Made by a program: the position numbers and the translations under genes. A DNA stretch of 64,000 bases from a virus (Duplodnaviria > Caudoviricetes), in the IMG/VR virus record IMGVR_UViG_3300042366_000756, positions 26,368 through 90,367 of that record; one strand, given 5' to 3'. Each line of letters opens with the position of its first letter. The first letter of the stretch is position 1. The notes beneath the pieces were generated by a model, which saw only the letters and a program-made list of their open reading frames with translations, was not told the origin of the DNA and made no database searches. Positions 3 to 26,823 of the stretch are shown here, one piece after another.

Positions 3-608
3 ATTTCAATAACTACTAGTGCTGGAACAACTAGCCCATTAACAGCGACTGGATCATTTTTGGGTGGACAGTCTTATACTTTTACTATTGTTGCAACTAA
101 TGCTAATGGAAATAGTTTATCTAGTTCTGCAAGTCCTGGAGTAGTTGTTACAGAAACTTCCGTTCCAGCAAAACCAGCAGCACCAACCGTAACAACTGCA
201 GCAGATGCTGATACCGTTACCTGGGTTGCTCCAGCAAATGGTGGAAGTACAATTACTGGATACACTTGGGCATCATCTGATGGCAAAACTGCAACAGTTA
301 GTGGAACAACGCTATCAGTTGTAGTTGCTCAAGAAGGAAATACATCACAAACATATACTGTTTATGCTACAAATGCAATTGGAAACTCTTCAATATCAGA
401 TCCATCAAATAGTGTTACTACCCCGCCGTTTTTCCCATCATTTGGTCCATTCTTCCCACCGTTCTTCCCATTCTTTCCACCGTTCTTCCCGTTCTTCCCA
501 CCGTTCTTCCCATTCTTTCCACCGTTCTTCCCGTTCTTCCCACCGTTCTTCCCGTTCTTCCCATTCTTCCCAAGATTCGTTCCGCCAAGTTTTGGTCCTC
601 TGGGCTAA
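3..608 (+). CDS. FN3-domain virion/decoration-type protein with C-terminal Pro/Phe tail (5' end truncated by window edge)
   Basis: Frame is open from position 3 to TAA at 606-608. FN3-like motifs (SYTFTIVATNANG; TVTWVAP..GGSTITGY..YTVYATNAIG) are followed by a (PPFF/PFF)n tail ending PRFVPPSF. Confidence 0.8.
   Translation: MSITTSAGTTSPLTATGSFLGGQSYTFTIVATNANGNSLSSSASPGVVVTETSVPAKPAAPTVTTAADADTVTWVAPANGGSTITGYTWASSDGKTATVSGTTLSVVVAQEGNTSQTYTVYATNAIGNSSISDPSNSVTTPPFFPSFGPFFPPFFPFFPPFFPFFPPFFPFFPPFFPFFPPFFPFFPFFPRFVPPSFGPLG
423..593 (+). repeat. Pro/Phe coding repeat, copy 1
   Basis: 42 consecutive codons (447-572) encode only P or F; there is an exact 42-nt tandem duplication at 456-497 / 498-539. 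Confidence 0.95.
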
Positions 609-618
609 TAAATGATAT

Positions 619-650
619 AAAAAAACCCCCAAGGAAAAAATCCAAGGGGG
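619..650 (-). terminator. Intrinsic terminator for the minus-strand lysozyme-like gene (possibly bidirectional)
   Basis: CCCCC-AA-GGA..TCC-AA-GGGGG stem at 626-650 with an A7 run at 619-625 (U-tract on the minus strand), between convergent genes. Confidence 0.7.
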
Positions 651-665
651 TAATTTTATTAACTG

Positions 666-1211
666 CTACTTACATGGATACTTGTTATACCATTCCTGAT
701 ACCGTGATCCATTTAGAGTAGTCCATGAGGACCAGTCTGTACCGCCTTTAGTCATATGATGTGTTATTTGTGCGTTTTTAACTGGATTAAATAGTTCAGA
801 GTTTGACTCTAAATCAAACTTCTCTCTACGATCTGGACCTAAGTTCCCTATCATGTTTATTTGAAACATGCCATAAGAACTATCTCCAGTATTAGAATTA
901 CCGTTAAAGGCATGTGGTCTAGCATTAGTCTCAGCCATAGCAATTGCACAAGCAGATCTTAAAGCCTTTCCTTCAAACCCTACAGCCTTTAATAATTCAA
1001 TTAACTGCCCATCACTTAAATTATGAGCATTTTTATACTTTTCTAATATTTTTTCTTTAGAAACCAAAAAAGCCACCTTGGGGGTGGCAGAGGAATCTAT
1101 AGAACTTTTAATTAGTAAGTTGTTTTCATTTGTTGCATTTGCGGTAGCCGAAAAAACGGTACTGCAAATAACCAACGTTAATACCCCTAGCCAAACATTT
1201 GCTTCTCTCAT
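666..1211 (-). CDS. Lysozyme-like/SLT transglycosylase with N-terminal hydrophobic signal segment
   Basis: AIAMAET (catalytic Glu) and GDSSYGMFQINM motifs. ATG at 1211 is preceded by AGGAGG; N-terminus reads WLGVLTLVICSTVFSATANA. Confidence 0.8.
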   Translation of the reverse strand: MREANVWLGVLTLVICSTVFSATANATNENNLLIKSSIDSSATPKVAFLVSKEKILEKYKNAHNLSDGQLIELLKAVGFEGKALRSACAIAMAETNARPHAFNGNSNTGDSSYGMFQINMIGNLGPDRREKFDLESNSELFNPVKNAQITHHMTKGGTDWSSWTTLNGSRYQEWYNKYPCK

Positions 1212-1235
1212 TGTAGAATACCTCCTAGAGAACAA

Positions 1236-1255
1236 ATGCTACCTACTGGTAGCAT
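1236..1255 (-). promoter_or_regulatory. Perfect 8-bp stem-loop at the predicted 5' end of the lysozyme mRNA
   Basis: ATGCTACC-TACT-GGTAGCAT inverted repeat starting about 7 nt downstream of the -10 box. Confidence 0.55.
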
Positions 1256-1261
1256 GTATTA

Positions 1262-1291
1262 ATTATAACATCAATTTGCCCTTTTGGTCAA
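1262..1291 (-). promoter_or_regulatory. Sigma70-type promoter for the lysozyme-like gene
   Basis: Minus strand reads TTGACC-N18-TATAAT with TG extension. Confidence 0.7.
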
Positions 1292-1337
1292 GTTAAACAA
1301 TAAAATATAAAAATATTTAAAATATTACTTTAGTTAG

Positions 1338-1346
1338 TGGTATAAT
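1338..1346 (+). promoter_or_regulatory. Extended -10 promoter
   Basis: TGGTATAAT, 9 nt before ATG 1356, no SD. Confidence 0.6.
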
Positions 1347-1355
1347 AATAAGATT

Positions 1356-1769
1356 ATGGCTACTTTTAGAGATCAAGGTTTAGGCTCTTATTCAATTGGT
1401 TCTGCACCTCCTACGGTCAACTGGACGATTGTAAAGGGCGACACATCAGCATTTCGGGTATATGTAACAGATGATAATAAAGATCCCCTAGTGATTGAAG
1501 ACTGGACAATTGAAATGGAAATTAAAAGACCAGCAATTGCGGGTAATTTAAATGATGCTGATCCAGCAGGAGTTTTGATTCTTACTCCTATTGCCACAGC
1601 AGAAGATGGCGATGGAGAATTTACAGTTTCTCTAACATCTGCTCAATCAAAAAGTTTAAACACTGGAGATATTTTTGATATTGAATTAAGGGATGCCAGC
1701 AGGGTATGGACAGTTGCTCGTGGTATATTAACAGTTATTGAAGATGTTACAAACAGCGATGAGTCATAA
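1356..1769 (+). CDS. Hypothetical virion structural protein (BppU-N-like beta-sandwich possible)
   Basis: 137-aa ORF with IVKGDT..F.V / GEFTVSLT / FDIEL pattern; sits in the fibre cassette. Confidence 0.55.
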   Translation: MATFRDQGLGSYSIGSAPPTVNWTIVKGDTSAFRVYVTDDNKDPLVIEDWTIEMEIKRPAIAGNLNDADPAGVLILTPIATAEDGDGEFTVSLTSAQSKSLNTGDIFDIELRDASRVWTVARGILTVIEDVTNSDES

Positions 1770-1990
1770 TGGCTTCCGTAGCAATAATAGATTTATCTGA
1801 AAAAAGATCAGAAACAATTTCTAGGATAGGTTATCCTAAAAGTAATATAAGTGGTTTTGTAAGGCTTACAAAGATACAAGAAGTTTTGCCTTTTAGAGTT
1901 ATGTTTACAAATATTGGAATACCAGCAGCATACTCAGGTGTACCTGGAATTGGACTTCAAATAATTGGAATTAATAACTATATTCTTTAA
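1769..1990 (+). CDS. Small hypothetical protein
   Basis: 73-aa ORF coupled to the upstream gene by a TAATG overlap. Confidence 0.6.
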   Translation: MASVAIIDLSEKRSETISRIGYPKSNISGFVRLTKIQEVLPFRVMFTNIGIPAAYSGVPGIGLQIIGINNYIL

Positions 1991-1995
1991 CATAA

Positions 1996-2004
1996 TGATA
2001 TAAT
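1996..2004 (+). promoter_or_regulatory. Extended -10 promoter (leaderless start)
   Basis: TGATATAAT, 6 nt before ATG 2011. Confidence 0.6.
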
Positions 2005-2010
2005 AACCTT

Positions 2011-2457
2011 ATGGCAAAGATATCAACCACCAACGTAAAGGCCCTGTTTCAGACAGGCGATAGACCAACAGAAGAAAACTATATAGATTTAATTGATAGT
2101 ACTTCTGCTAGGTCTACCGATCTTGGATCAGACGGCAATAATGAGTTAACAATTAATGGAATTGAAAACTCAACAGTATTTGATAGTTTTGCATCAAGCG
2201 AGTTTAGATCAATGAAATATATGATCTCACTCAAGCATGTAGCAGGCGGTGCAAATAAGTACGCTGTTACAGAATTAACAATATTGAATGATGGATCAGA
2301 TGTATCTGTTAGTCAATATGGCACTATTGAAAATGATGGGAATATTGGCACCATCTCTGTTTCAAAGGCTGGGGACACAGTTTCACTAACTGTGGTTCCT
2401 GTGGGGGGAAATACACCTATAACTCTGCGCTACATGCGTATGGGATTAAAGGCCTAA
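2011..2457 (+). CDS. Putative fibre-associated structural protein
   Basis: N-terminal FQTGDRPTEENYIDLIDS motif typical of fibre N-termini. The C-terminal domain (FDSF..SEFRSMKYMI..SQYG) resembles the C-terminus of the 707-aa neighbour (IDTW..TYSSAKYIV..TEYA). Confidence 0.6.
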   Translation: MAKISTTNVKALFQTGDRPTEENYIDLIDSTSARSTDLGSDGNNELTINGIENSTVFDSFASSEFRSMKYMISLKHVAGGANKYAVTELTILNDGSDVSVSQYGTIENDGNIGTISVSKAGDTVSLTVVPVGGNTPITLRYMRMGLKA

Positions 2458-2472
2458 CTAAGGAGATAAAAG

Positions 2473-4596
2473 ATGGCAACAGTAACAAAAGACTTTAGAG
2501 TAAAATCGGGACTGATAGTTGAGGGATCAACTGCGACCGTTAATGGAAAGAACATAATCACAGCAGGCACAATTGATGCTAAAGGTGATTTATTAGTAGG
2601 TAGTGCAGACGATGCAGTAGCACGTCTTGGCATTGGAACAGATGGGCAAGTCCTTACAGCAGCGTCAGGAGCAACATATGGCGTTCAATGGTCAAACCCT
2701 GCAGCAGTTGGTGTATTTGATACATCAATTACCTTTGAAGGCGCAACAGCAGATGACTACGAGACAACTCTTACAGTTGCAGACCCAACAGCAGATCGTA
2801 CAATTACACTCCCTAACGTATCAGGTACCGTAGTTACATCTGGTGATACTGGTACAGTTACAGCAACAATGCTTGCTTCAGATTCAGTAACTACCGTAAA
2901 AATTACAGACGCAAACGTAACTGCAGCAAAACTTGCTACAGACTCTGTAGAGACAGCAAAGATTAAAGATGCAAATGTAACTGCTGCTAAACTTGCTGCA
3001 GATTCTGTAGAAACAGCAAAGATTGTTGACTCTAACGTAACAGCAGCAAAATTGGCTGCAGATTCAGTTACAACTGCAAAGATTCTTGATGCAAACGTAA
3101 CAGATGCAAAACTTGCTTCAAACTCAGTTACAAACGCTAAAATTGCAGATTCAGCAGTTGATACAGCAGAGATTGCTAATAGCGCAGTAACTGCAGCAAA
3201 ACTTGCTACAGATTCTGTAGAGACAGCAAAGATTAAAGATTCAAATGTAACTGCTGTTAAACTTGCTACAGACTCTGTAGAGACAGCAAAAATTAAAGAT
3301 CTTAACGTAACAGAAGCAAAAATTGCAGAAGGTGCAGTAACTTCAGCAAAGATTGCTAACGATACAATTGTAGATGCAGACATTAATTCTGCTGCTGCAA
3401 TCGCTCAGTCTAAGATTGCAAATCTTACAACAGATCTTGCTGCTAAGTTAGCACTTGCTGGTGGCACAATGACTGGTGCAATTGCAATGGGTACAAACAA
3501 GATCACAGGTCTTGGTACACCAACTGATGGAACAGATGCAGCAACAAAGAATTATGTAGACTCAGCAGCACAGGGTATTGATTGGAAAGCATCAGTACGT
3601 GCAGCAACAACTGCAGCAGTAACACTCGCATCTGATCTAGAAAATGGAGATACTCTTGACGGAGTAACCCTTGCTACAGGTGACCGTGTTCTTGTTAAGA
3701 ATCAGTCAACTGGTTCAGAAAATGGTATCTATGTAGTTAAGGCATCTGGTGCTCCAGATCGTTCAACTGATGCAGATGCAGGCTCTGAACTTACTTCAAA
3801 TTTTGCGGTATTCGTAGAAGAAGGAACTGTAAACGCTGATCAAGGTTATACATTAACTAACAATGGCTCAATTACAATTGGTACCACAGCACTTACTTTT
3901 ACTCAGTTTACTGGTTTGGGACAAATTATTGCGGGTACAGGATTAGACAAGACTGGAAACACTCTTGACATTGATTCAACTGTAACAACAAACGATGGAA
4001 CTCAGACACTTACAAACAAGTCAATTAGTGGTTCAGCAAACACTATTACAAATGTTTCCCTAACTTCTAGCGTTACAGGAACACTTCCTGTTGCTAACGG
4101 TGGTACTGGAATCACATCACTTGGAGCAGGAATTGCAACATTCCTTGAAACTCCATCTTCTGCAAACCTTGCATCAGCATTAACCGATGAAGCAGGCTCT
4201 GGAACAGTAGCATTTACTAATAGTCCAACCTTTACTACACCAACCCTTGGTGCAGCAGCAGCGACAAGTATTGCTCTTCCAGATGCTCTTATGGGTTCTG
4301 CTCTTGCTACCGCTTCAGACTCAGCAACAACAATTGATACATGGTCAGCAACAACATACTCAAGTGCTAAATATATCGTACAAATGAAAAAAGGTAATGA
4401 TATTGAAGTGATTGAAGTTTTGGTTACTGTAGATGGATTAAACAACGTTTACCTAACAGAGTATGCAGATGTAATCAGTAATGCAGTATTAGGAACAACT
4501 GACGCTGTGTACAGCGGTGGAAACGTTCTTCTTCAGGTAACTGGTGCATCAGCAGATACCGCTGTTAAAGTACACAAAATTTATATTGAAGCATAA
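2473..4596 (+). CDS. Fibre-like virion protein with 10-aa repeats
   Basis: SD AAGGAG; decapeptide repeats, LAGGTMTGAI..AATKNYVD fibre motif, WKASVRAATT domain. Confidence 0.75.
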   Translation: MATVTKDFRVKSGLIVEGSTATVNGKNIITAGTIDAKGDLLVGSADDAVARLGIGTDGQVLTAASGATYGVQWSNPAAVGVFDTSITFEGATADDYETTLTVADPTADRTITLPNVSGTVVTSGDTGTVTATMLASDSVTTVKITDANVTAAKLATDSVETAKIKDANVTAAKLAADSVETAKIVDSNVTAAKLAADSVTTAKILDANVTDAKLASNSVTNAKIADSAVDTAEIANSAVTAAKLATDSVETAKIKDSNVTAVKLATDSVETAKIKDLNVTEAKIAEGAVTSAKIANDTIVDADINSAAAIAQSKIANLTTDLAAKLALAGGTMTGAIAMGTNKITGLGTPTDGTDAATKNYVDSAAQGIDWKASVRAATTAAVTLASDLENGDTLDGVTLATGDRVLVKNQSTGSENGIYVVKASGAPDRSTDADAGSELTSNFAVFVEEGTVNADQGYTLTNNGSITIGTTALTFTQFTGLGQIIAGTGLDKTGNTLDIDSTVTTNDGTQTLTNKSISGSANTITNVSLTSSVTGTLPVANGGTGITSLGAGIATFLETPSSANLASALTDEAGSGTVAFTNSPTFTTPTLGAAAATSIALPDALMGSALATASDSATTIDTWSATTYSSAKYIVQMKKGNDIEVIEVLVTVDGLNNVYLTEYADVISNAVLGTTDAVYSGGNVLLQVTGASADTAVKVHKIYIEA
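2857..3396 (+). repeat. 17-18 copies of a 30-nt / 10-aa repeat (V-T-x-A-K-I/L-x-x-x-x)
   Basis: VTAAKLATDS / VETAKIKDAN alternation; 54-nt blocks at 2917-2970 and 3187-3240 differ by one base. Confidence 0.9.
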
Positions 4597-4614
4597 CTAG
4601 AATAGAGGTTAGAA

Positions 4615-5064
4615 GTGGCAACAATAAACAAAGACTTTAGAGTAAAGCATGGCATTAACGTTGCCGAAGGCGGTACTTTTGGAGGAACTGTTACAGTTGC
4701 CACTCCTACTGAAAACACACATGCAACAACAAAGTCCTATGTAGATTCAATAGCAGGAATGGTTGTTGGTGCTACAGCACCTACTTCTCCAACTAATGGA
4801 AGACTATGGTTTGATACATTAACAGAACGTGTGCATGTTTATTATGATTCTGAGTGGCTTGCAATTGCAACACTTGAAGATGCAGAAATATTACAAGACC
4901 ATATTCACGATACCGCTATTGATGGCACTGGTTTAATCGTCAGTACTTTTGTTAGTGGTGGGGCATATAATGAACCAGGAGTTCTTGTAAGTGCAGGATT
5001 GTACAACACGTCAGAGTTTGAAGAAACTTTTGATGGTGGGACAGCAATAGATAATTTTAACTAA
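4615..5064 (+). CDS. Small fibre-like structural protein
   Basis: GTG start after GAGG; N-terminus MATINKDFRVK parallels MATVTKDFRVK of 2473; ATTKSYVD and P..G.LWFDT motifs. Confidence 0.7.
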   Translation: MATINKDFRVKHGINVAEGGTFGGTVTVATPTENTHATTKSYVDSIAGMVVGATAPTSPTNGRLWFDTLTERVHVYYDSEWLAIATLEDAEILQDHIHDTAIDGTGLIVSTFVSGGAYNEPGVLVSAGLYNTSEFEETFDGGTAIDNFN

Positions 5065-5069
5065 TTATC

Positions 5070-5078
5070 TGTTATAAT
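5070..5078 (+). promoter_or_regulatory. Extended -10 promoter
   Basis: TGTTATAAT upstream of the AAGGAG SD. Confidence 0.6.
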
Positions 5079-5102
5079 ATAACTAAGTATAAGGAGTCGT
5101 AA

Positions 5103-7538
5103 ATGGCAACTAGAATGCAACAGCGCAGAGGAACTGCTTCACAGTGGACTTCTGCAAATCCAGTATTAAATGCGGGTGAAATGGGATGGGAATCAGATAC
5201 AAATAAATTTAAGATGGGTGATGGAACAAATCACTGGGCAGATCTTGATTATTTTATTGATGCCAACTCAACAGTAAACCCTTCTTTTGGTACTAGCATT
5301 GTTTTTGAGGGTGCAACAGCAGACTCCTATGAAACTACACTACAAGTAACAGACCCAACCGCAGACCGAACAATTACTCTTCCAAACGTTACAGGTACAG
5401 TTATTACAACTGGCAACCTTTCAGACATTACTAACATTGGAGTATTTACTTCAACAATTACAATGGAAGGCGCTACTGCAAATGATCACGAACTTACAAT
5501 TTCTGCAGGTGATCCAACCGCAGATCGTACAGCAACTTTTCCAGATGCCACAGGCACTATTGTTCTTCATGATGCAAGTCAAACATTAACTAATAAAACT
5601 ATTTCTTTTTCAAATAACGCAGTTTCAGGAACGCTTGCTGAGTTTAATACTGCTGTAGCAGATGCAGATCTTGTTTCTATTTCTGGTGCAGAAACACTTA
5701 CAAACAAAACTCTTACAAGTCCAGTAGTTTCACAACTTATACTTTCAGATTCTTCAATTGTTTTTGAAGGTTCTACTGCTAATGACTATGAAACTACACT
5801 TACAGTAGTAGATCCAACTGAAGACAGGACAATTACTCTCCCAAATGAAACAGGAACTGTAATTACAACTGGTAACTTTGCAGCAATTACATCCTTAACT
5901 AACCCATCAATTTCAAATCCAACGATTTCAGGTCTTATTATTTCCGACTCTTCAATAGTTCTTGAAGGCGCAACGGCAAATGATTTTGAAACAACTTTGA
6001 ATATAACAGATCCAACTGCCGACAGGACAATTACTTTTCCTGACATAAGTGGTAATGTTATTACAAGTGGAAACTTATCAGATATTACTAGCCTTGGAGT
6101 TTTAAGTTCAATTGTTTTTGAAGGTTCTACTGCTGATGATTTTGAACTTACTCTTGCAGGTGGCGAACCAACTGCTGACCGCACAGTTTCCTTCCCTGAT
6201 GCAGGAGGAGTAGTTGTTGTTGACACTGCTACACAAACCCTTACAAATAAAACTTTAACAAGTCCACAAGTAAGTGGTTTAACTATTACAGATGGAAGCA
6301 TTGTTCTTGAAGGTTCTACACCAAATGATTTTGAAACCACATTAACTGTTACAGATCCAACTGCTGACAGAACGATTTCATTCCCTGACGTAACTGGTAC
6401 AGTTGTAACAACTGGTGATACTGGTAGCGTAACTAGCACAATGATTTTAGACGGAACTATTGTTGATGGAGATATTAATGCATCAGCAGCGATTGCACAA
6501 TCTAAAATTTCTGGCCTAACAACTGATCTTGGAAATAAACAAGATAAGATTTCTGGTGTATCAGATACAGAAATTGGATACTTAAGTGCTGTAACTTCAG
6601 ACATTCAGGCACAACTAGATGCTAAGTTAGCCCTTGCTGGTGGAACCATGACTGGCGCTATTGCAATGGGCACAAGCAAAATTACTGGCCTTGGAACACC
6701 AACTGATGCAGCAGATGCAGCAACAAAGGCTTATGTAGATGCTCTTGGAGAAGGACTTCATATCCATGCTTCAGTAGTGGCTGCAACAACTGCAAACATT
6801 ACTCTTGCTACAGATGTTGAAAACGGAGACACTCTTGACGGAGTAACTCTTGCAACTGGTAACAGAATTCTTGTTAAGAATCAATCAACTGCATCTCAAA
6901 ACGGTATTTACGTAGTAGCAGCATCAGGAGCACCATCTAGAGCAGCAGACTTTGACTCCCCTGCTGAAATTGATGGAGGAGACTTTGTATTCGTAACTGG
7001 AGGAACAGTAAATGATAACAAAGGCTATGTACAGATAAACACTGTTGGAACAATAGGCACAGATGCAATTGAATTTAGCCAATTCTCAGGTGCAGGAACT
7101 TTTACTGCTGGTAACGGATTAACATTAACTGGCCCAGAGTTTACTATTAATACTAGCATTACAGCAGATCTTTCAACAGCCCAAACCCTCACAAATAAAA
7201 CATTAACATCACCTAAAATTAATTTAGGAATTAATGCTCAAACTGGCACAAATTATACATTTGTTTTAGCCGATGATGGTAAGTTTGTAACCGCATCTAA
7301 TTCTTCAGCAATTACAGTTACTATCCCGCCAATAAGTTCAGTTGCATATCCAATTGGAGCGCAACTTAATATTATTCAAAAGGGTGCAGGACAAGTTACA
7401 TTTGCTCAAGGTGCTGGAGTAACAATTAACTCTACTGGAGCAACTGCCACTGCGCCAAAACTTCGTGTAAGGTACTCATCAGCAACAGCCGTACATGAAG
7501 GCTCGGATATTTGGTACGTAGTAGGAGATATTGCGTAA
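5103..7538 (+). CDS. Tail-fibre-like protein with Mtd-N-like N-terminus and six internal repeats
   Basis: QQRRGTASQWTSANPVLNAGEMGWESDTNKFKMGDG (Mtd_N-like); six SIVFEGATA.D.ETTL..DPTADRTITLP modules; C-terminal QTGTNYTFVL.D domain. Confidence 0.75.
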   Translation: MATRMQQRRGTASQWTSANPVLNAGEMGWESDTNKFKMGDGTNHWADLDYFIDANSTVNPSFGTSIVFEGATADSYETTLQVTDPTADRTITLPNVTGTVITTGNLSDITNIGVFTSTITMEGATANDHELTISAGDPTADRTATFPDATGTIVLHDASQTLTNKTISFSNNAVSGTLAEFNTAVADADLVSISGAETLTNKTLTSPVVSQLILSDSSIVFEGSTANDYETTLTVVDPTEDRTITLPNETGTVITTGNFAAITSLTNPSISNPTISGLIISDSSIVLEGATANDFETTLNITDPTADRTITFPDISGNVITSGNLSDITSLGVLSSIVFEGSTADDFELTLAGGEPTADRTVSFPDAGGVVVVDTATQTLTNKTLTSPQVSGLTITDGSIVLEGSTPNDFETTLTVTDPTADRTISFPDVTGTVVTTGDTGSVTSTMILDGTIVDGDINASAAIAQSKISGLTTDLGNKQDKISGVSDTEIGYLSAVTSDIQAQLDAKLALAGGTMTGAIAMGTSKITGLGTPTDAADAATKAYVDALGEGLHIHASVVAATTANITLATDVENGDTLDGVTLATGNRILVKNQSTASQNGIYVVAASGAPSRAADFDSPAEIDGGDFVFVTGGTVNDNKGYVQINTVGTIGTDAIEFSQFSGAGTFTAGNGLTLTGPEFTINTSITADLSTAQTLTNKTLTSPKINLGINAQTGTNYTFVLADDGKFVTASNSSAITVTIPPISSVAYPIGAQLNIIQKGAGQVTFAQGAGVTINSTGATATAPKLRVRYSSATAVHEGSDIWYVVGDIA
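5292..6420 (+). repeat. Six dispersed ~40-aa modules (SIVxEGxTxxDxETTL..DPTxDRT)
   Basis: Read directly from the translation; a seventh copy lies in the 707-aa protein. Confidence 0.85.
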
Positions 7539-8350
7539 TGGAAATCCTGGGGACAATTGCTTCTTCTGCTAAAGGGGCTCCAAGTAAGCCAACAAGCGTT
7601 TCTGCAACTGATGCAGGATCAGGTCGTGCATTTAATAATGGATCTGCTACTGTAACCTTTACTGCAGGAGCAGGAGCAACAGCAACATCATTTACTGCTA
7701 CATCTTCCCCAGGATCATATACAGCAACTGGTTCTTCATCTCCACTAACTGTTACAGGTTTACAATCTAACACCGCATATACATTTACCGTTACAGCAAC
7801 AAATGCATCTGGAACTTCCGATGCTTCAGATGCTTCTGCTTCTATTACGGCAACAACAGTACCAGCAACTATGAGTGCACCAACCGTAACAACTTCAGCA
7901 CTTTCAGATGCTGTTTCTTGGACAGCCCCCGCAGATGGAGGTTCTGCAATTACTGGCTATACCTGGGCATCTTCTGACGGAAAAGGCGCTACAGTAGGAT
8001 CAGGAACAACAAGTGTTGCCGTTACTCAAGAAGCAAATACTTCACAAACTTATACAGTTTATGCAACTAACGCAAATGGTAACTCAGTAACTTCAAGTGC
8101 ATCAGGCAGTGTGACTACACCACCGTTCTTCCCTCCATTTTTTCCATTTTTCCCATTCTTCCCTCCATTCTTTCCACCGTTCTTCCCGTTCTTTCCTCCG
8201 TTCTTTCCTCCATTTTTTCCATTCTTCCCATTCTTCCCGTTCTTCCCACCGTTCTTCCCACCGTTCTTCCCACCGTTCTTCCCATTCTTCCCGTTCTTCC
8301 CAAGATTCGTTCCACCTTCTTTTAGATTTACTCCTGATAATTTATTTTAA
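7538..8350 (+). CDS. Double-FN3 protein with C-terminal Pro/Phe tail
   Basis: ATG at 7538 overlaps the upstream stop (TAATG). Two FN3-like units are followed by 61 residues of only P/F and then RFVPPSF. Confidence 0.85.
   Translation: MEILGTIASSAKGAPSKPTSVSATDAGSGRAFNNGSATVTFTAGAGATATSFTATSSPGSYTATGSSSPLTVTGLQSNTAYTFTVTATNASGTSDASDASASITATTVPATMSAPTVTTSALSDAVSWTAPADGGSAITGYTWASSDGKGATVGSGTTSVAVTQEANTSQTYTVYATNANGNSVTSSASGSVTTPPFFPPFFPFFPFFPPFFPPFFPFFPPFFPPFFPFFPFFPFFPPFFPPFFPPFFPFFPFFPRFVPPSFRFTPDNLF
8120..8323 (+). repeat. Pro/Phe coding repeat, copy 2
   Basis: 61 consecutive P/F codons (8120-8302); three exact copies of TTCTTCCCACCG at 8240-8275. Confidence 0.95.
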
Positions 8351-8376
8351 ACAAAAAATAAACCAAGATAGGTCTA

Positions 8377-8385
8377 TGATATAAT
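8377..8385 (+). promoter_or_regulatory. Extended -10 promoter for the oxygenase array
   Basis: TGATATAAT in the intergenic region. Confidence 0.55.
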
Positions 8386-8438
8386 TAATTAGGGTTTAAG
8401 GGAATATTAGATATTTTAATATAATAAGGGGGAAATAA

Positions 8439-9167
8439 ATGGATTATAACAATCAGGCACATCATGACGAAAATGCAAACGTTTGGTTTACAAAGGATAG
8501 ATCAGAGACATCAAGCAACAGGGTTGGCACAAAATCATTAAAAAATGGCATAGTTGTTGAAAACCTGGCTTTAGGGGTTAATGTTTACAAAAATACATTT
8601 TCATTAGAAGATTCTAAAAGATATATAAATACACTTGAGTCAAATTTAAATAACAATGCAAAGCATAGTTGGTCACAAGCACAAGTAACAAACTCTACCA
8701 CTCCAATTAAAAAAGCAAGAGACTGTGTAGATTTTAAATACAAGCAAGAAAATCTTGGACCAAGAGATCAAGATAACGCAGAACTACTAGATCTTCATCA
8801 AGAAATATATGAAAAACTAAAATACTGTGTAGATGATTATGCTTCATATTGGGGAATAAATATTGTATATTATGAGGCATTCAATTTTGTTAAATATGAA
8901 GGAGAAGGATCTCACTTTAATATTCATGCAGATCACGGTCCTTTCTATAACTGCACTGTTTCTGCTGTAGTATATATAAACGATGACTATGAGGGTGGAG
9001 ACTTAAAATTCCCAAGAATGGATAATCTTGTCTATAAGCCTAAAGTTGGCGATATAGTTCTTTGTCCGTCAAACTATATCTATGAGCATGCATCACTACC
9101 AATACAATCAGGAACAAAATACTGTGTTGTTGTTATGACAGACATTAATGAGTTAGGACACAAGTAA
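8439..9167 (+). CDS. 2OG-Fe(II) oxygenase, prolyl-4-hydroxylase-like
   Basis: HAD..YINDDYEGGDLKF..YEHASLP..GTKY: HxD..H iron triad and basic 2OG ligand. Confidence 0.85.
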   Translation: MDYNNQAHHDENANVWFTKDRSETSSNRVGTKSLKNGIVVENLALGVNVYKNTFSLEDSKRYINTLESNLNNNAKHSWSQAQVTNSTTPIKKARDCVDFKYKQENLGPRDQDNAELLDLHQEIYEKLKYCVDDYASYWGINIVYYEAFNFVKYEGEGSHFNIHADHGPFYNCTVSAVVYINDDYEGGDLKFPRMDNLVYKPKVGDIVLCPSNYIYEHASLPIQSGTKYCVVVMTDINELGHK

Positions 9168-9168
9168 C

Positions 9169-9957
9169 GTGTCCAAAGAATCTAATTCTTTTAAAAATGT
9201 AATTAAATTTAAACCATACAGGCCATGGCTAAATGATCAAAGTTTTTCTGCACCGTCTCCAACACAAAAAACAATTCCCGAATGGTATAAAAGTGCAGAT
9301 AGATTTGCCAAAATGTCAAATGGAGAATATTATCAAGCACCAAAAGAGGTCTGTCCTTTTCCAAAAGAAGGAACTGTAGATGACTATGGAAAGATTCCAA
9401 CATGGAAGGCATGCCCAGCAATTTTAGATGCTTTTTCTACAGGCTATGTTTTAAAAACTCCATGCGACCTTACATTTTTTAAAAATGAAAAAGGAATAAT
9501 TGATGTTAGAGTGTCTGATCCAAAATACAAAGATTTTTGTGGACAAAGACCTGCAATGCCACAATTTGAACATCCTAAAGGATTTTACAAAGATCATTTT
9601 GCTTGGTATTCAGATTGGGGATTAGAACTTCCAGAAGGATATAGTGCATTGTTTATGACGCCAATGAATAGATTTGATTTACCATTTTTAAATACAACTG
9701 GAATAGTTGATTCTGATAAAGTTCATATTCTTGGAACTTTTCCGTTTTTTATTGCAGAGGGTTGGGAAGGAACTTTACCAGCAGGAACTCCTTACTTACA
9801 AGTACTTCCTTTTAAAAGAGAAAATTGGGAACAAAAAATAGAAAATTTAGATCAAAATCAGATGTATGATAAACTAATGGATAATGCAAAAATTTATCGC
9901 CAACCAGATGGCGGTGTTTATAAAAATAAAGTATGGTCTAAAAGAGAATACATATAA
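9169..9957 (+). CDS. Hypothetical protein, DUF6065-like
   Basis: KACPAILDAFSTGY..PCDL and AGTPYLQVLPF motifs, parallel to those of the 10652 protein. Confidence 0.55.
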   Translation: MSKESNSFKNVIKFKPYRPWLNDQSFSAPSPTQKTIPEWYKSADRFAKMSNGEYYQAPKEVCPFPKEGTVDDYGKIPTWKACPAILDAFSTGYVLKTPCDLTFFKNEKGIIDVRVSDPKYKDFCGQRPAMPQFEHPKGFYKDHFAWYSDWGLELPEGYSALFMTPMNRFDLPFLNTTGIVDSDKVHILGTFPFFIAEGWEGTLPAGTPYLQVLPFKRENWEQKIENLDQNQMYDKLMDNAKIYRQPDGGVYKNKVWSKREYI

Positions 9958-9968
9958 GGAGCAATAAA

Positions 9969-10652
9969 ATGCAAACATGGACAGAAAAAGTTGACCTTGG
10001 AAATGGCATCATATGTTATAAAGGGGTTATTAAAAAAGAATTTGATGTAATAAATAGACTTGAAAGTATTTTGGGCTCTGTTGCGGGGTATGGAGAGTTA
10101 TCTCCAGAAGGAAATCCATACCACTGGGTACCAGCATATGTAGGGTATCAACAGTTGATGCCAGACTACAGAGATTGTGTAGATTTTAAATTTAAAAAAA
10201 CAGATATAGAACATGATACAAGTGAAGATTCATTAAAATTACAGGCACTTTGGCAAGATGTTTATGATGCTCAAGCAGTAGCCGTTGAAGATTATTGTAG
10301 ACAGTTTAGGATTCATAACTTAAAGTATTGGGAAGCATTTAATTTTATTAAGTATGGGCCAGGACAACATTTCCAAGAGCACCACGATCATGGATTTTCA
10401 TATAATTGCACTGTCTCATTAGTGGCTTATATAAATGATGATTATGAGGGTGGAGAGTTAGCATTTAGATTACAAGGTTTGAACGTTAAGCCAGACGCTG
10501 GAGATTTATTTGTATTCCCTTCAAACTTTATGTATCCTCATAGAGCAATGCCAGTTCATTCGGGAACAAAGTATTCTATTGTTACTATGCTAGATTATAG
10601 TAAAAAGTTTCATACTCCAGAAATGTACGATCCAAAATGGAATAATGAATAA
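9969..10652 (+). CDS. 2OG-Fe(II) oxygenase, prolyl-4-hydroxylase-like
   Basis: HHD..YINDDYEGGELAF..YPHRAMP..GTKY. Confidence 0.85.
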   Translation: MQTWTEKVDLGNGIICYKGVIKKEFDVINRLESILGSVAGYGELSPEGNPYHWVPAYVGYQQLMPDYRDCVDFKFKKTDIEHDTSEDSLKLQALWQDVYDAQAVAVEDYCRQFRIHNLKYWEAFNFIKYGPGQHFQEHHDHGFSYNCTVSLVAYINDDYEGGELAFRLQGLNVKPDAGDLFVFPSNFMYPHRAMPVHSGTKYSIVTMLDYSKKFHTPEMYDPKWNNE

Positions 10653-11374
10653 TGTTTAATATTTTAGTTGAACAAACTCCTTATTCCAATATGAAGGTTT
10701 CTCCAATGTCTATAAAAAGAGATTGGATGGACGCAACTTCAGAAAAACATGCATATCGTTGTTTTCCAGTAACTCAAGCAAATGTAATTGGATGGAGCAT
10801 ATCTTGTTTAAATGACATATCTTTTATTTGGAATGGAATCAATGATCAAACTGGAGACAATGTTAAAATTTTGCAAGGAGAAGAAACTTGTTACACTGGA
10901 AGAGGACAGTCAAGTTTAAGTTTTAATACAGGATTACATTTTAAAACAACCGAAAATATTAGTTTATTTACAATTAATCCAGTTAATTATTTTAGTGATG
11001 ATTTTGAAACAATGTCTTCTTTAATAAGTATATCTTTTTTTGATAATCCACTTCCTTTAGCAATTAAAGCACGATCTGCAAACAAAGAAATTTTAATAAA
11101 AGCGGGAACTCCACTAGCAACAATTATTCCAATATCTTTGGGTGCCTTAAATAATTCAAGTATTGAAATTAATGAATATCAAGATCTAGACAATAAAAAA
11201 CAAGAAGCAAATAAATCTTATGGGGATGCAGCACAAAAAATAAATCAATCTGGAAAATTTACAGATTGGTATAGAAATGCTGTAAATGAAAAAGGAGAAT
11301 CCATAGGAAATCATGAGGTTAAAACATTAAAATTGAAAGTAATTAATAATATAAGGGAACAAATAGATGACTAA
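10652..11374 (+). CDS. DUF6065-family protein
   Basis: KRDWMDAT..HAYRCFPVTQANVIGW signature. Confidence 0.65.
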   Translation: MFNILVEQTPYSNMKVSPMSIKRDWMDATSEKHAYRCFPVTQANVIGWSISCLNDISFIWNGINDQTGDNVKILQGEETCYTGRGQSSLSFNTGLHFKTTENISLFTINPVNYFSDDFETMSSLISISFFDNPLPLAIKARSANKEILIKAGTPLATIIPISLGALNNSSIEINEYQDLDNKKQEANKSYGDAAQKINQSGKFTDWYRNAVNEKGESIGNHEVKTLKLKVINNIREQIDD

Positions 11375-11412
11375 TCCTTTTACAGCCGTTAACCCTTTAT
11401 TTATAGAATTTC

Positions 11413-11421
11413 TGGTATAAT
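11413..11421 (+). promoter_or_regulatory. Extended -10 promoter (leaderless start of JmjC gene)
   Basis: TGGTATAAT, 6 nt before ATG 11428. Confidence 0.6.
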
Positions 11422-11427
11422 CTTATT

Positions 11428-12015
11428 ATGCTTAATCAAATAGAAGATGCTAAAAAAAATAATCAAGCGTTAGTATTTGAAAAATATCAGATGCCAGAAA
11501 TTACTTGGGAAGATGTTTTGTTATTTTTGTATAAAGAGTCTTTAGTACCTAATCATGATTTAATTAAAAAAGTAAAAGAAATAAACAATTATGAGGATTT
11601 TAATTCAATAGGAAATATTCAGATACAAAGCAAATTTTGGCTTTCTCCACAGTCACATAATATATTTAAAGATTTTAATGGGGTATCTGAGTTACTATAT
11701 AAATTAAATAAATCAAAAGATAACAGTCATTGTAGATATTATTCAGGAAGGGACCAGTGCTCCTGTGATTCCTGTTGGCATTTTCAAGGGATAAGAATAT
11801 CTTTATCAAATAGAGTTGTGTCAGACCATCATGATCCACACGATATTTTTTATTGGCAAATACTTGGAACTTCTTTTTGGAAAGTAAATAATGACATTAC
11901 CTATATCTTAAATCCAGGAGATATGTTATATTTACCAAAAGAAAGTTCGCATGAAGTTTGGTGTGATGGACCTAGAGCAGGACTACTTATAGATAACCTA
12001 AAGGAGATAAAATAA
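11428..12015 (+). CDS. JmjC/cupin-type 2OG oxygenase (ROXA/YcfD-like)
   Basis: HHDPHDIFYWQILGTSFWKV..LNPGDMLYLPKESSHEV. Confidence 0.75.
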   Translation: MLNQIEDAKKNNQALVFEKYQMPEITWEDVLLFLYKESLVPNHDLIKKVKEINNYEDFNSIGNIQIQSKFWLSPQSHNIFKDFNGVSELLYKLNKSKDNSHCRYYSGRDQCSCDSCWHFQGIRISLSNRVVSDHHDPHDIFYWQILGTSFWKVNNDITYILNPGDMLYLPKESSHEVWCDGPRAGLLIDNLKEIK

Positions 12016-12019
12016 TACC

Positions 12020-12706
12020 ATGACAGAAGAATATGCAAATTCTAATATTGACAGTAATCTAAAATCTATAACTCCGCCAGGATTTTTTGGAGAATCAGCA
12101 AACAATATTCAATCAAGAGAAAATTTTATAACTGAAGAAGAAAGATTATTTTTGTTAAATGCTGCAAAATCAATTACGGAATGGGATAGAACTGAAACAC
12201 ACTATAATGATGACGGAGTGGTGATATATGATGCATCTTATTGGGACAATAGAGTTGCTTCAAGGCCAATCTTAGAAAAAATAGATCCAGAAATTTCTAT
12301 TGTAATAGAAAGACTTGTGGCAAGATTAAAAATAGAAGTAGATAATTTTTTTAATGTAGATGCAAAACCTACGAGTCCAGCAATAGTTAGGTGGATGCCA
12401 GGATATAGGCAAGAACCCCATGCAGACAAACAATTACAAAATGGAGAGCCAAATGATTTCCCATGGTATGATTTAGCAGGATTATTTTACTTAAACGATG
12501 ATTATGACGGTGGAGAACTATATTTTTTAAATCATAATGTTGAGTTTAAGCCAAAACCAGGTGCTGCATATTTTTTTCCAGGAGATATTAATTATAGCCA
12601 TGGCGTAAGAGAAATAACAAAAGGAATTAGATATGTTATTCCATTTTTTTGGACAATCTTAGAGCATAAAGGTAAAAAAACTATGACAGATAAGGAAATA
12701 GAATGA
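12020..12706 (+). CDS. 2OG-Fe(II) oxygenase, prolyl-4-hydroxylase-like
   Basis: HAD..FYLNDDYDGGELYF..YSHGVREI..GIRY. Confidence 0.85.
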   Translation: MTEEYANSNIDSNLKSITPPGFFGESANNIQSRENFITEEERLFLLNAAKSITEWDRTETHYNDDGVVIYDASYWDNRVASRPILEKIDPEISIVIERLVARLKIEVDNFFNVDAKPTSPAIVRWMPGYRQEPHADKQLQNGEPNDFPWYDLAGLFYLNDDYDGGELYFLNHNVEFKPKPGAAYFFPGDINYSHGVREITKGIRYVIPFFWTILEHKGKKTMTDKEIE

Positions 12707-13461
12707 ACCTAGAAAATAAAAAAAGACTTACAAAAGACATAGTTATATATGAAAACTTTATTGATAAAGAAACTTGTCAAAAAATGATACAGGCGCTTGA
12801 CGCACAAGCAGATTCTGGTAAACTATCTTGGATGCCTATATCGTTCTATGAATCATATTCATCTGTTCTTCCGCAAGATAATGACCAAGAAGTTTTGGAT
12901 GCTGGATTAGAGCCAAATATTTTTTCAGATATTGAAAAGAAAATGCCAGAAGCAATTGCATCTGTTCATGATTTAGATCCAAAGAAAATTTCTAAAATTG
13001 GATACCATACACAAAAATGGGAGCCTGGAGCATATGCAAGAATCCACTCTGATAACACAGATGAAAAGGGTAATTCTGGAGCATTTACAAGAAGTAGGTA
13101 TGCTGGCTTTTTATACTTGAACGATAATTTTAAAGGTGGACTTTTAAGATTTCCAGATCAAAGCATAGAGATACAGCCAAAGGTTGGAATGCTTGCTGTA
13201 TTTGACGGGGGATTTAACAATATGCATGAGGTATCCCTTATTACAAGTGGAGTAAGATACACAATTGGTTCTTTCTGGGATGACAGAGAAGAATCAGATT
13301 ATCCACAAGAACTTAGAGACGCCTGGGCAGCAGAAATGAAAGAAACTAGAGCAAAACAGGAAATTGAAAGAGCCGAATGGCAAGATCTTATTAAAAAGGG
13401 ATATAAAATTGACATAGATGGTAATAAATATAAAGTAGAGGAGTTAAATAAAGATGCCTAG
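12703..13461 (+). CDS. 2OG-Fe(II) oxygenase, prolyl-4-hydroxylase-like
   Basis: HSD..LYLNDNFKGGLLRF..NMHEV..SGVRY. Confidence 0.85.
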   Translation: MNLENKKRLTKDIVIYENFIDKETCQKMIQALDAQADSGKLSWMPISFYESYSSVLPQDNDQEVLDAGLEPNIFSDIEKKMPEAIASVHDLDPKKISKIGYHTQKWEPGAYARIHSDNTDEKGNSGAFTRSRYAGFLYLNDNFKGGLLRFPDQSIEIQPKVGMLAVFDGGFNNMHEVSLITSGVRYTIGSFWDDREESDYPQELRDAWAAEMKETRAKQEIERAEWQDLIKKGYKIDIDGNKYKVEELNKDA

Positions 13462-14113
13462 TTTTTTAAAAAAAGAATTTATAGACAATAACTTTAGCGT
13501 TGTTGATATAACAGATGATATTTTATTAGTAGAAAACTTTATTTCTCAAGAAGAGTTAAAAGAAATTTTAAATATTATTAACACAACAGATGAGGAAGAG
13601 TGGCTTGTTGCATATAAAGAAAGTTTGGCTGAATTTTGTTTATTAAAGTTTGGCTCATCAGATGTTGAAAAAATGGTTGCTGAAGGAAAATATGAAGTAA
13701 CTAAGGGCTGGGATGATAAAATTCTTAATATAAATCAATATCCTATAACTAAACTATTGCAACAAAGAATACAACAACTTGTAGACAAGGCAGATAGCAC
13801 ATTGCAGTTAGGTGGAATGAGTACTCTTCAAAGAATGCAAGAAGGGGTTGAATTAAAATCTCACGTAGATCAAGACACAGACCCATCTGTTAGATATGCC
13901 ACAATATTATATATAAATGATGACTATACCAATGGAGAACTTTTTTTTGATAACTTTGATATTAAATTAAAACCAAAGCCAGGGTCTTTGCTTGTTTTTC
14001 CAGGAGATCCAAAACATAAACATGGAGTAAAGCATGTTGGCCCAGGACCAATAAGACAGGTTATTGTTGGTTTTGTGACAGTAAAAGATTTTTATGAAAA
14101 CAACAAGTACTAA
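13454..14113 (+). CDS. 2OG-Fe(II) oxygenase, prolyl-4-hydroxylase-like
   Basis: HVD..LYINDDYTNGELFF..HKHGV..PIRQ. Confidence 0.85.
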   Translation: MPSFLKKEFIDNNFSVVDITDDILLVENFISQEELKEILNIINTTDEEEWLVAYKESLAEFCLLKFGSSDVEKMVAEGKYEVTKGWDDKILNINQYPITKLLQQRIQQLVDKADSTLQLGGMSTLQRMQEGVELKSHVDQDTDPSVRYATILYINDDYTNGELFFDNFDIKLKPKPGSLLVFPGDPKHKHGVKHVGPGPIRQVIVGFVTVKDFYENNKY

Positions 14114-14124
14114 GGAGATATAAA

Positions 14125-14754
14125 GTGAACAAAGAAATACTTGAAGAAAAAGTCTATTATTACACAGATGTAATTGAAGACCCAAAAAAACTTGTTGAGG
14201 CAATTGAAAGCGACAATAAAGATCCTTGGGGCGAATGGATGGCATGCAGCGGACAGGCTTATGTTTATGGCACAGACAAGACTATTGCCTTATCAGCAGA
14301 TGCAGATGAAAAAAATAAATATATCTACAACACTTTACAAAAAGCGTTTGATGATGTTGCAAGAGATTATGCAAAGGCACAAGGAATTACAGAAGAGCCA
14401 AAACTATTTCCACAATACCCAATAAAAAAATACCAATCAGGAACATACATGGGGGCACACTTTGATCAACAAGAAGGAGATGGCCGTCTTAAAGTTTCTT
14501 TTGTTATGTATTTAAACGATGACTACGAAGGTGGAGAACTATCTTTTACTATAGCGTCACCAGATGGAGTATTACAAAACGCTAGTCCAGAGCCAGATTT
14601 TGCAGAAGCAGAAAAAAACGGAAACTACACTTTTGCTATTAAACCAAAAGCAGGAAGCATTATTGTGTTTCCTCCTTCTCCACCATATCATCACACTGCA
14701 CACTTAGTTAAAAGCGGTGAAAAGATTATGGTTCCTCAACACTGGATTCATTAA
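14125..14754 (+). CDS. 2OG-Fe(II) oxygenase, prolyl-4-hydroxylase-like
   Basis: GTG start after AAGGAG; HFD..MYLNDDYEGGELSF..YHHTAH..GEKI. Confidence 0.85.
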   Translation: MNKEILEEKVYYYTDVIEDPKKLVEAIESDNKDPWGEWMACSGQAYVYGTDKTIALSADADEKNKYIYNTLQKAFDDVARDYAKAQGITEEPKLFPQYPIKKYQSGTYMGAHFDQQEGDGRLKVSFVMYLNDDYEGGELSFTIASPDGVLQNASPEPDFAEAEKNGNYTFAIKPKAGSIIVFPPSPPYHHTAHLVKSGEKIMVPQHWIH

Positions 14755-15421
14755 CATTAAAACAGCAATAGTAACAGGAGCCAGCAAAGGAGTTGGCTAT
14801 GCAACAGTAAAAATTTTATCTGAGAATGGATATAAGGTAATTGCTGTTTCAAGAGATTTATCCAAAGTGTCTAATTTAGTTTCTGACAATGTTGAAGTTT
14901 ATTCTTTAGATATAACAAACTCTAATGAAATTAAAAATTTTTATGAAAAATATAAAGACATAACTCTTGACCTACTTGTTAATAATGCAGGTGGAGGATC
15001 TGGACCTACACATATTATTAATGAAACAATGGATAATTTTAGACGGGCTTATGATATAAATGTATCTGGGCCAATGTATCTCTCACAACTCTTTGTTCCA
15101 TCTATGAAAAAATCCCAATCCCCAACTATTGTGTTTATTACATCTTTTGGAGGAAAAATCCCTTACCGTGGCGGAGGTAATTATACTAATGCTAAGCGTG
15201 GGGAAAGAGGTCTTATAGATACTATGAGACTAGAATTTCCAGAGTATGGAATTAAGATAACTGAAATTTGTCCTGCTACAATTGATACTCAAAAACAAAA
15301 AAGAGAACATGCTCTATCTGCAGAAGATTTGGCTAATGCGATTTATTGGGTTGGATCTTTGCCCAAACATTTGAATATAAATCAAATAGAGATGTGCCAT
15401 ATCAATAGTAGTAAGTTCTAA
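14717..15421 (+). CDS. Short-chain dehydrogenase/reductase (YdfG-like); start uncertain
   Basis: TGASKGVG, NNAG and YTNAK motifs and LPKHLNINQIEM C-terminus. No ATG precedes the Rossmann motif (GTG 14717 or ATT 14756). Confidence 0.8.
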   Translation: MKRLWFLNTGFINIKTAIVTGASKGVGYATVKILSENGYKVIAVSRDLSKVSNLVSDNVEVYSLDITNSNEIKNFYEKYKDITLDLLVNNAGGGSGPTHIINETMDNFRRAYDINVSGPMYLSQLFVPSMKKSQSPTIVFITSFGGKIPYRGGGNYTNAKRGERGLIDTMRLEFPEYGIKITEICPATIDTQKQKREHALSAEDLANAIYWVGSLPKHLNINQIEMCHINSSKF

Positions 15422-17623: not shown

Positions 17624-18076
17624 ATGAAAAAAATACTAGCATCATTAGCAATTTTTATAGCAGTTGGAGCAGTGCTGTTTTCTATAGATAAACCAAAAGA
17701 TAACTGCATAAACCTTTATGTTGATTATGGAGTTTTAGATAATCAAACAAAGTTAGAAAAATGTGTACAATCATCTAGCAGCATTCTTGCTTTAGATGTT
17801 TTAAAACAAGCCAATCTTAAAATAGAAGGTACCAAGAAATATGGACTAGGAGTAGTTTGTAGAGTTAATGGGTTGCCAGATGAAAAGGTAGAGTCTTGTG
17901 AAGTTATGCCACCAGAGGATGCATACTGGGCAATTATTATTAAAGAAAAGAAATTAATTCCTTTCCCTAAAAGCGAGTGGGGTTGGGGACAACTTGCAAT
18001 AGATCAACAACTTTTGAGTCCAGGGGATTCAATAGGTTTGGTTTGGGCTAATAATAGAAAAGTGGTATTCCCATAA
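17624..18076 (+). CDS. Membrane-anchored/exported DUF4430 (transcobalamin beta-domain)-like protein
   Basis: Hydrophobic N-terminus; ALDVLK..IEG..YG..V..VNG..YW..W..D..L.PGDSI pattern; lies between nrdJ and pduO. Confidence 0.5.
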   Translation: MKKILASLAIFIAVGAVLFSIDKPKDNCINLYVDYGVLDNQTKLEKCVQSSSSILALDVLKQANLKIEGTKKYGLGVVCRVNGLPDEKVESCEVMPPEDAYWAIIIKEKKLIPFPKSEWGWGQLAIDQQLLSPGDSIGLVWANNRKVVFP

Positions 18077-26761: not shown

Positions 26762-26780
26762 AATATAGTCATAACGTATT

Positions 26781-26812: not shown

Positions 26813-26823
26813 TGTTATTCTAG

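Follow-up and report, generated by a model that had tools for sequence, protein, structure and literature searches.

The 64,000-nt window analysed here, bases 26368-90367 of the linear IMG/VR sequence IMGVR_UViG_3300042366_000756 (90,367 bp, 82% complete, 35% GC), belongs to a tailed phage. At the end of its tail-fibre operon it encodes an FN3 protein, PF2, with a C-terminal tail of proline (P) and phenylalanine (F) repeats, followed by an array of prolyl 4-hydroxylase (P4H)-type 2-oxoglutarate (2OG)-Fe(II) oxygenases. A second FN3 protein with such a tail, PF1, is encoded ahead of the fibre operon. Comparative genomics gives good support to a predicted functional link between the P/F tails and the hydroxylase array, and the oxygenases probably modify the tails, because related phages have the tails and the enzyme block together or have neither. 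We think it likely that positions 7538-15421, with the unlinked PF1, are one copy of a mobile phage cassette in which the array hydroxylates prolines of the P/F tails late in infection. The arrangement of an FN3-P/F gene with oxygenases recurs in well over 100 IMG/VR contigs, and chance is therefore excluded as its origin.

The pairing was examined from both sides. At least 120 IMG/VR loci matched a degenerate DNA pattern for FFP(P)FFP(P)FFP, and the forward count was made on 74 unique P/F proteins, all with downstream DNA of 5 kb or more. An oxygenase gene follows on the same strand within 5 kb in 63 of these 74, and within 1 kb in 54, and oxygenases are almost never found upstream. The exceptions are proteins with P/F as an internal linker, open reading frames (ORFs) cut at the 5' end, or the first of two P/F genes, where the array comes after the second. 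When arrays were fished by the oxygenase motif alone, blind to tails (n = 50), a P/F gene lay within 5 kb upstream in 48, and the remaining two were cut by the contig end. Apparent cases of an array without a tail carry variant repeats (PPHF, PPxFF[AS] or PPPF). The first-pass annotation had asked whether P/F tails and P4H arrays co-occur in synteny, and both counts say that they do, with gene order kept.

The array follows the P/F gene in either of two slots, ahead of the SLT-lysozyme block or behind the big fibres. The pairing also occurs on a different phage backbone. G019, a myovirus of 105 kb and 46% GC, encodes a tail sheath and PolA, and its capsid protein is a different one; it shares with the window phage almost only a fibre, the FN3-P/F protein, the oxygenases ox3 and ox6, and DUF6065. 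Such gene content indicates that the cassette is mobile between phage morphotypes. Run against cellular genomes, the P/F DNA pattern hit low-complexity sequence by chance and one 1.4-kb fragment of a metagenome-assembled genome (L292) with a true tail and an oxygenase. This fragment, the sole such case in the GTDB genome collection, is probably phage DNA binned with that genome.

Close relatives, picked by a portal protein identity of at least 80%, show the same association. PF13640 arrays of at least four hits occur in G036, G037 and G048, and G045 has one hit only. The P/F pattern is found among the relatives only in G037 and G048, beside their arrays, and in G036 the small array adjoins a (PPPF)n protein whose end is Cys-rich. 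Including the window phage itself (G000), a P/F protein is present in 4/4 array-bearing genomes and in 0/10 of those lacking an array; these genomes are related, which keeps the comparison from being statistically clean. Arrays equally common in relatives without Pro-rich tails, an outcome that the first-pass annotation had set against a link, are thus not seen. All ten array-less relatives cover the region, and two are near-complete, G032 (96%) and G039 (100%, with terminal repeats). The head genes of G032 are 94-98% identical to those of the window phage. In all ten the big fibre gene adjoins nrdJ directly. They still encode FN3 homologues, with C-termini that are Gly-rich or globular, not P/F, and all retain fibre homologues (40-82% identity). 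Because fibre genes persist without the array, the fibres are not its obligate substrate. PF2 is missing from G032 and G039, and PF1, about 8 kb from the array, is likewise missing from both. These distributions indicate that tail and array are gained or lost together at very short evolutionary distances.

Compared with G032, the window phage has as extras PF1; PF2 with the whole array and a short-chain dehydrogenase/reductase (SDR); a sugar island at contig 981-8372; two small genes after nrdJ; and one 336-aa gene. The two small genes (window 17624-18701) are also missing from G039, and nrdJ in these two relatives is 88-94% identical. FN3 homologues with long Gly-rich tails occupy the same slot in array-less relatives (L413:6589-7653, L415:12267-13283, L418:1532-2650).

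PF1 and PF2 are 73% identical over residues 63-271. The PF1 gene begins 477 nt ahead of the window (contig 25890-26975), and the PF2 start is overlapped by 1 nt by the stop of the 811-aa fibre gene. Both tails end in PRFVPPSF plus a few residues. The first-pass description of two FN3 proteins with tails of Pro and Phe only holds for the FN3 domains and the PFF/PPFF repeats, but tail 1 contains one PSFG and is not strictly Pro/Phe-only. Tandem Repeats Finder (TRF) gives periods of 9, 12 and 21 nt in the tails. Third codon positions differ between repeat units while P and F are retained, so it is as a peptide that the repeat is selected. Codon use in the tails departs from the rest of the genome: Phe is TTC in 49/61 codons, against 91% TTT (9% TTC) elsewhere, and Pro is CCG in 19/48, against 2%. 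This usage avoids long runs of T or C, or it may reflect a recent origin in a phage of higher GC. PF2 was assigned to no PHROG family. Only its place in the tail-fibre operon hints at a possible virion location for the FN3 proteins. The N-terminus of PF2, MEILGTIASSAKGAP, differs from that of many P/F proteins elsewhere, and the same start occurs in L052 and L114.

The array starts 88 nt behind PF2. Its make-up was counted correctly in the first-pass annotation as six P4H-type oxygenases, one JmjC protein, two DUF6065-like proteins and one SDR (Pfam, hhalign and PHROG). The six oxygenases score 35.8-55.7 bits against PF13640 (cut-off 27) and are mutually 22-41% identical. The HxD..H..K/R motif, which includes the HxD...H iron triad, is invariant in their alignment and is kept by more than 95% of 518 unique homologues. 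The 2OG-binding residue is Lys in ox1, ox3 and ox9 and Arg in ox6, ox7 and ox8. A profile search of the PDB placed P3H1, Bacillus anthracis P4H, PiuC, PBCV-1 P4H, EGLN1 and lysyl hydroxylases in the top ranks. The best Foldseek matches of the AlphaFold2 (AF2) model of ox3 are 3gze, 4iw3, PHD2 and 5c5t (template modelling (TM) scores 0.57-0.65), that is, Chlamydomonas P4H with (Ser-Pro)5, PPHD with EF-Tu, PHD2 and PBCV-1 vCPH. The label P4H-type is therefore apt by sequence and by predicted fold, a double-stranded beta-helix nearest to that of prolyl hydroxylases, with catalytic residues intact, and all six are predicted to be catalytically intact prolyl-hydroxylase-type 2OG/Fe(II) enzymes. Oxygenase ox7 has in addition a weak, sub-cut-off NCBIfam match to YhhC, a 2OG oxygenase of cyclophane-containing peptides (E 6e-4).

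The other array members are less readily placed. The u2 protein has no Pfam match and is a remote DUF6065 homologue by hhalign; it falls in the same PHROG family, phrog_7084, as the DUF6065 protein. The model of the latter (predicted local distance difference test score (pLDDT) 75) has weak dUTPase-like fold similarity (TM about 0.35), and a function from structure was rejected, as these matches point to none. The JmjC_2 match of the small cupin protein spans 23 residues only (E 4.6e-8). Frequencies were taken from best-hit labels on ORFs of the loci fetched around P/F genes and arrays. The SDR label was given to 28 ORFs only and the JmjC label to one besides the window's own gene, compared with 114-166 for most oxygenase labels. 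Because of this rarity neither SDR nor JmjC is taken as a core step, which weakens the earlier suggestion that hydroxylation is followed by SDR oxidation. Coordinates of all features are collected in Table 1.

Table 1. Features of the P/F cassette and adjoining fibre locus (window positions).
Feature	Position	Strand	Basis
PF1, C-terminal 201 aa of a 361-aa FN3 protein	3..608	+	Pfam fn3; translation
Tail 1, PFF/PPFF units, higher period 21 nt	423..575	+	translation, TRF
SLT/lysozyme-like gene between 'slot A' (PF1) and fibre operon	666..1235	-	Pfam SLT_3
Three small conserved fibre-module genes, 137, 73 and 148 aa	1356..2457	+	phrog_967 baseplate/fibre connector, weak
Tail-fibre protein, 707 aa	2473..4596	+	PHROG tail fibre
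149-aa gene between the two fibre genes	4615..5064	+	
Tail-fibre protein, 811 aa, Mtd_N domain	5103..7538	+	Pfam, PHROG
PF2, 270 aa, two FN3 domains and (PPFF/PFF)n tail	7538..8350	+	Pfam fn3; ORF 7511-8350 translated
Tail 2, 61 residues, exclusively P and F	8120..8302	+	translation, TRF
ox1, P4H-type 2OG-Fe(II) oxygenase, HxD..H..K	8439..9167	+	PF13640 (2OG-FeII_Oxy_3)
u2, DUF6065-like, Syn9 gp43 homologue	9169..9957	+	hhalign 93%, phrog_7084
ox3, P4H-type oxygenase, best-conserved member	9969..10652	+	PF13640; AF2 pLDDT 90.7
DUF6065 protein, Cys37 invariant	10652..11374	+	Pfam DUF6065
Small JmjC_2/cupin protein, rare in related arrays	11428..12015	+	Pfam
ox6, P4H-type oxygenase, HxD..H..R	12020..12706	+	PF13640
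ox7, P4H-type oxygenase, Arg type	12703..13461	+	PF13640
ox8, P4H-type oxygenase, Arg type	13454..14113	+	PF13640
ox9, P4H-type oxygenase, Lys type	14125..14754	+	PF13640
Classical SDR, accessory, in a minority of arrays	14717..15421	+	Pfam adh_short

Across the IMG/VR loci the repeat is 45% F, 42% P and 2.7% Y, and its commonest units are PPFF (936), PFF (625), PPYF (126) and PYF (54). Some 200 aa of FN3 usually come before it, and what lies behind it takes one of four forms: further FN3 domains, a Hint/intein-like domain, a Cys-rich tail or a short end in Lys. In a layout found in large phages of myovirus type, the P/F proteins are only 83-108 aa, have no FN3 and end in ...PPxFK (L092:3566-3817, L061:6093-6419, L094:2805-3131). 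The constant partner of the array is thus the repeat rather than the FN3 domain. About a tenth of P/F proteins run into the Hint/intein-like domain (L137:3032-4384, L052:6071-7393, L124:3698-5035), which starts with Cys and a DTLILT-type block, ends in HN and has a Pfam Intein_splicing match; its self-cleavage would release or ligate the C-terminus of the P/F tail. A further 35 P/F proteins end in Cys-rich knots. Many of those encoded behind big fibres share an N-terminal ...GKKxGRKSQASNDFLEP (L009:609-1613, L027:152-1090, L062:645-1583), which could be a docking or recognition motif.

Accessory genes vary between cassettes. Some insert further protein-tailoring genes behind the P/F gene and ahead of the array, namely Sulfotransfer_2 (one or two copies), an Asp/Asn beta-hydroxylase and a possible methyltransferase, and also a DUF6171 zinc-ribbon (L137:4385-6329, L156:5649-7417; also L185 and L172). 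The sugar island of the window phage (L422), ahead of the window, holds a UDP-glucose/GDP-mannose dehydrogenase-family gene, a carbamoyltransferase, a DXD glycosyltransferase and a seventh P4H-type oxygenase with a PF13640 match (contig 1534-2124). The island is absent from G032 and G039. PF04488 and PF16861, its glycosyltransferase and carbamoyltransferase families, are each present in 2/20 array-bearing contigs, and for this reason the island, and with it glycosylation, was rejected as a core step.

The window encodes a portal, a protease, a capsid protein, a tape measure, DnaB, Pol III alpha and a terminase, and the phage is siphovirus-like, with a protease about 48% identical to those of large Streptomyces siphoviruses. 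The portal protein has at least 598 IMG/VR matches, of which the best 80 are all at least 80% identical, and a protein identical to ox3 is encoded on at least 14 contigs, which come from several JGI and ENA samples. The lineage, very abundant and uncultured, probably infects a low-GC freshwater actinobacterium. Among isolated phages there was no match to the region or to PF2, and ox3 is at most 36% identical to their proteins, the matches being cyanophage oxygenases. In the fibre operon, the 707-aa tail fibre is found in relatives both with and without the array, and its gene contains 60-nt tandem repeats encoding 20-aa units of the AKI.DANVTAAKLA.DSVET type (window 2860-3326). The 811-aa fibre has a repeated FEG.T.D..ETTL.V.DPTADRTITLP unit. 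The SLT/lysozyme-like gene is conserved in relatives and serves as a context marker. A promoter and terminator scan was discarded as a guide to operon structure, since its counts were no higher than in shuffled sequence.

The literature searched held no account of P/F tails, of the cassette or of the tail-array pairing, and the PBCV-1 P4H and the Syn9 array come closest among published systems. (Pro-Ala-Pro-Lys)n peptides are substrates of the PBCV-1 enzyme. As in the window phage, a P4H-fold 2OG oxygenase (vCPH, 5c5t) and Pro-rich repeat proteins are both virus-encoded, and 5c5t is among the top sequence and fold matches of the window oxygenases. PBCV-1, however, has one enzyme and a eukaryotic host, whereas the cassette belongs to bacteriophages with 6-11 divergent paralogues plus DUF6065 proteins, its repeat is a two-letter Pro/Phe motif, and its genes are strictly adjacent and co-inherited. 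The PBCV-1 prolyl 4-hydroxylase work of Eriksson et al. is among the studies cited in PMC9301287.

In cyanophage Syn9 a tandem dioxygenase array (gp41-gp54) was described by Iyer, Abhiman, de Souza and Aravind in 2010, who proposed a secondary-metabolite role and no protein substrate and noted a dUTPase-fold protein with a conserved cysteine (PMC2938197). Both arrays lie directly behind tail-fibre genes and combine many non-identical 2OG dioxygenases in tandem with a dUTPase-fold Cys protein. Syn9 also has one JmjC protein, of MINA/No66 type, to which the small cupin protein with its short JmjC_2 match may correspond. Syn9 gp43 is matched by the u2 and DUF6065 hidden Markov model profiles (E 1.9e-10 and 2.7e-5). 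The Syn9 array differs in having two tryptophan halogenases, of which there are none among the ten window array genes, and Gly-rich genes between fibres and array in place of a P/F repeat. The window P4H profile matched none of the Syn9 oxygenases. One of the Gly-rich genes, gp36 (L430:13856-14806), encodes a protein with 35% Gly and a CYGCW motif.

Looser parallels exist in cells. Predicted cellular operons with collagen-like substrates also place a low-complexity repeat protein beside hydroxylases, taken as their substrate, and Sulfotransfer_2 and Asp/Asn beta-hydroxylase genes occur in some P/F cassettes too. They differ in oxygenase families, Gly-rich substrates and cellular setting, and are predictions only. 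In the maturation of plant and algal hydroxyproline-rich glycoproteins (HRGP/extensin), P4Hs act on Pro-rich polyproline-II repeats and the hydroxyproline (Hyp) is then O-glycosylated. The algal enzyme structure 3gze is the top fold match of ox3, and the window phage contig has a DXD glycosyltransferase, a UDP-sugar dehydrogenase and a carbamoyltransferase elsewhere. The phage repeat is, however, aromatic rather than Ser/Hyp, and the sugar genes are confined to the few contigs noted above. The likeness to a cluster for ribosomally synthesised and post-translationally modified peptides, drawn in the first-pass annotation, is a loose one. PF2 is a 270-aa two-FN3 protein and not a short leader-core precursor, and there is no protease in the window cassette. 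Some relatives have Hint/intein-like self-cleaving ends or the N-terminal KSQASNDFLEP motif, but the window PF2 has neither.

We infer three things: the tail as substrate, Pro hydroxylation as the reaction, and a product that is carried on the virion and has its role there. In the proposed scheme the array and the two DUF6065-family proteins would be functionally tied to the (PPxF/PFF)n proteins, whose genes close the tail-fibre operon. The enzymes would act late in infection and in the cytoplasm, hydroxylating prolines of the P/F tail, and the paralogues may divide the work by position, or by the regio- or stereochemistry of the product. A very greasy two-letter segment of a fibre-associated protein would thereby gain polarity and stiffness and become a stalk or adhesive of polyproline-II type. 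A bolder form of this scheme, put forward tentatively and in our judgement unlikely, makes the P/F tail a virion adhesive or stalk of a new kind, matured by enzymes. Hydroxylation at many sites by the 6-11 dedicated paralogues could give Hyp, dihydroxy-Pro or beta-hydroxy aromatics and so a sticky or cross-linkable rod, with a loose likeness to mussel foot proteins. The C-terminal variants (Cys-rich knots, Hint domains that could ligate its C-terminus, terminal Lys) may then set what the tail attaches to.

Several observations weigh against tail hydroxylation by the array. Most of the contigs counted represent one abundant phage lineage with conserved gene order, so that the counts are not phylogenetically independent. 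For a repeat that offers only two or three kinds of proline position, 6-11 distinct hydroxylases is a large number, and no match of residue type to paralogue was found. The length of the P/F region correlates weakly with oxygenase number (rho 0.31, p 0.035, uncorrected for phylogeny), and with this weak length trend at most, repeat type and length were rejected as predictors of array content. PF13640 takes in enzymes of unknown or non-protein substrate, such as PiuC. The Syn9 array, similar in composition and just behind fibre genes, has no P/F repeat nearby, and dioxygenase arrays therefore do not in general need P/F tails.

The last point leads to the idea that the cassette is one functional unit whose substrate is not the tail. 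The oxygenases would make or alter a small molecule, a peptide metabolite or a host-envelope component, and the P/F protein would be its scaffold, carrier or user. Besides Syn9, which has the same kinds of parts (2OG dioxygenases, JmjC, DUF6065/dUTPase-fold), this would suit the many divergent paralogues, typical of multi-step metabolite pathways, the SDR at the end of some arrays and the DUF6065 pair without known function. The ten window array genes, however, match no peptide synthetase, halogenase or transporter family in Pfam, the nearest solved relatives are protein prolyl and lysyl hydroxylases, and the one gene class always with the array is the Pro-rich repeat protein; we regard a metabolite role as having only a modest chance of being correct. 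That the P/F gene and array merely hitch-hike together, lying next to each other in a hypervariable island that closes the fibre operon and sharing no biochemical link, is improbable. Close relatives do all have the same backbone order, slot A and the fibre-nrdJ interval are clearly variable, and other islands of the window phage that are not core (the sugar genes, the post-nrdJ small genes) are also missing from G032. Yet the array stands behind the P/F gene in two slots and on a myovirus backbone, the ten array-less relatives never have P/F tails though FN3 homologues are present, and PF1, although 8 kb away from the array, is missing from G032 and G039 as well.

It also seems quite improbable that the oxygenases act on host proteins or on other virion proteins, such as the large fibres with DPTADRT-type repeats, in place of the P/F tails. 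The array is always within the fibre module, and hydroxylation of bacterial tail-collar and collagen-like proteins was predicted by Iyer et al. (PMC2938197), but the retention of fibre homologues in every array-less relative makes the fibres independent of the array. Action on nucleic acids, in the manner of Tet/JBP or AlkB, is very improbable indeed. It is suggested by sub-cut-off Tet_JBP Pfam hits to ox3 (E 0.008) and to the seventh oxygenase of the sugar island (E 0.00036), but Tet-like chains rank far below the P4H, PHD and lysyl hydroxylase matches in sequence and fold, and the cassette has no DNA-modification partners. Modification of the P/F tails is the reading that we prefer.

Prolyl 4-hydroxylase genes are among the most abundant 'auxiliary metabolic genes' of aquatic viromes, where their use has been called cryptic (PMC9301287), and the tandem dioxygenase arrays of cyanophages have been without a known substrate since 2010 (PMC2938197). 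The P/F tail offers a concrete substrate candidate: it is co-inherited with the enzymes, and the uncultured phage lineage concerned is very abundant. If the proposal is true, phages tailor their own host-contact proteins by collagen-like chemistry, and if the tail is in addition an adhesive or stalk, this would explain the purpose of the abundant viral P4H genes in lake and sea viromes.

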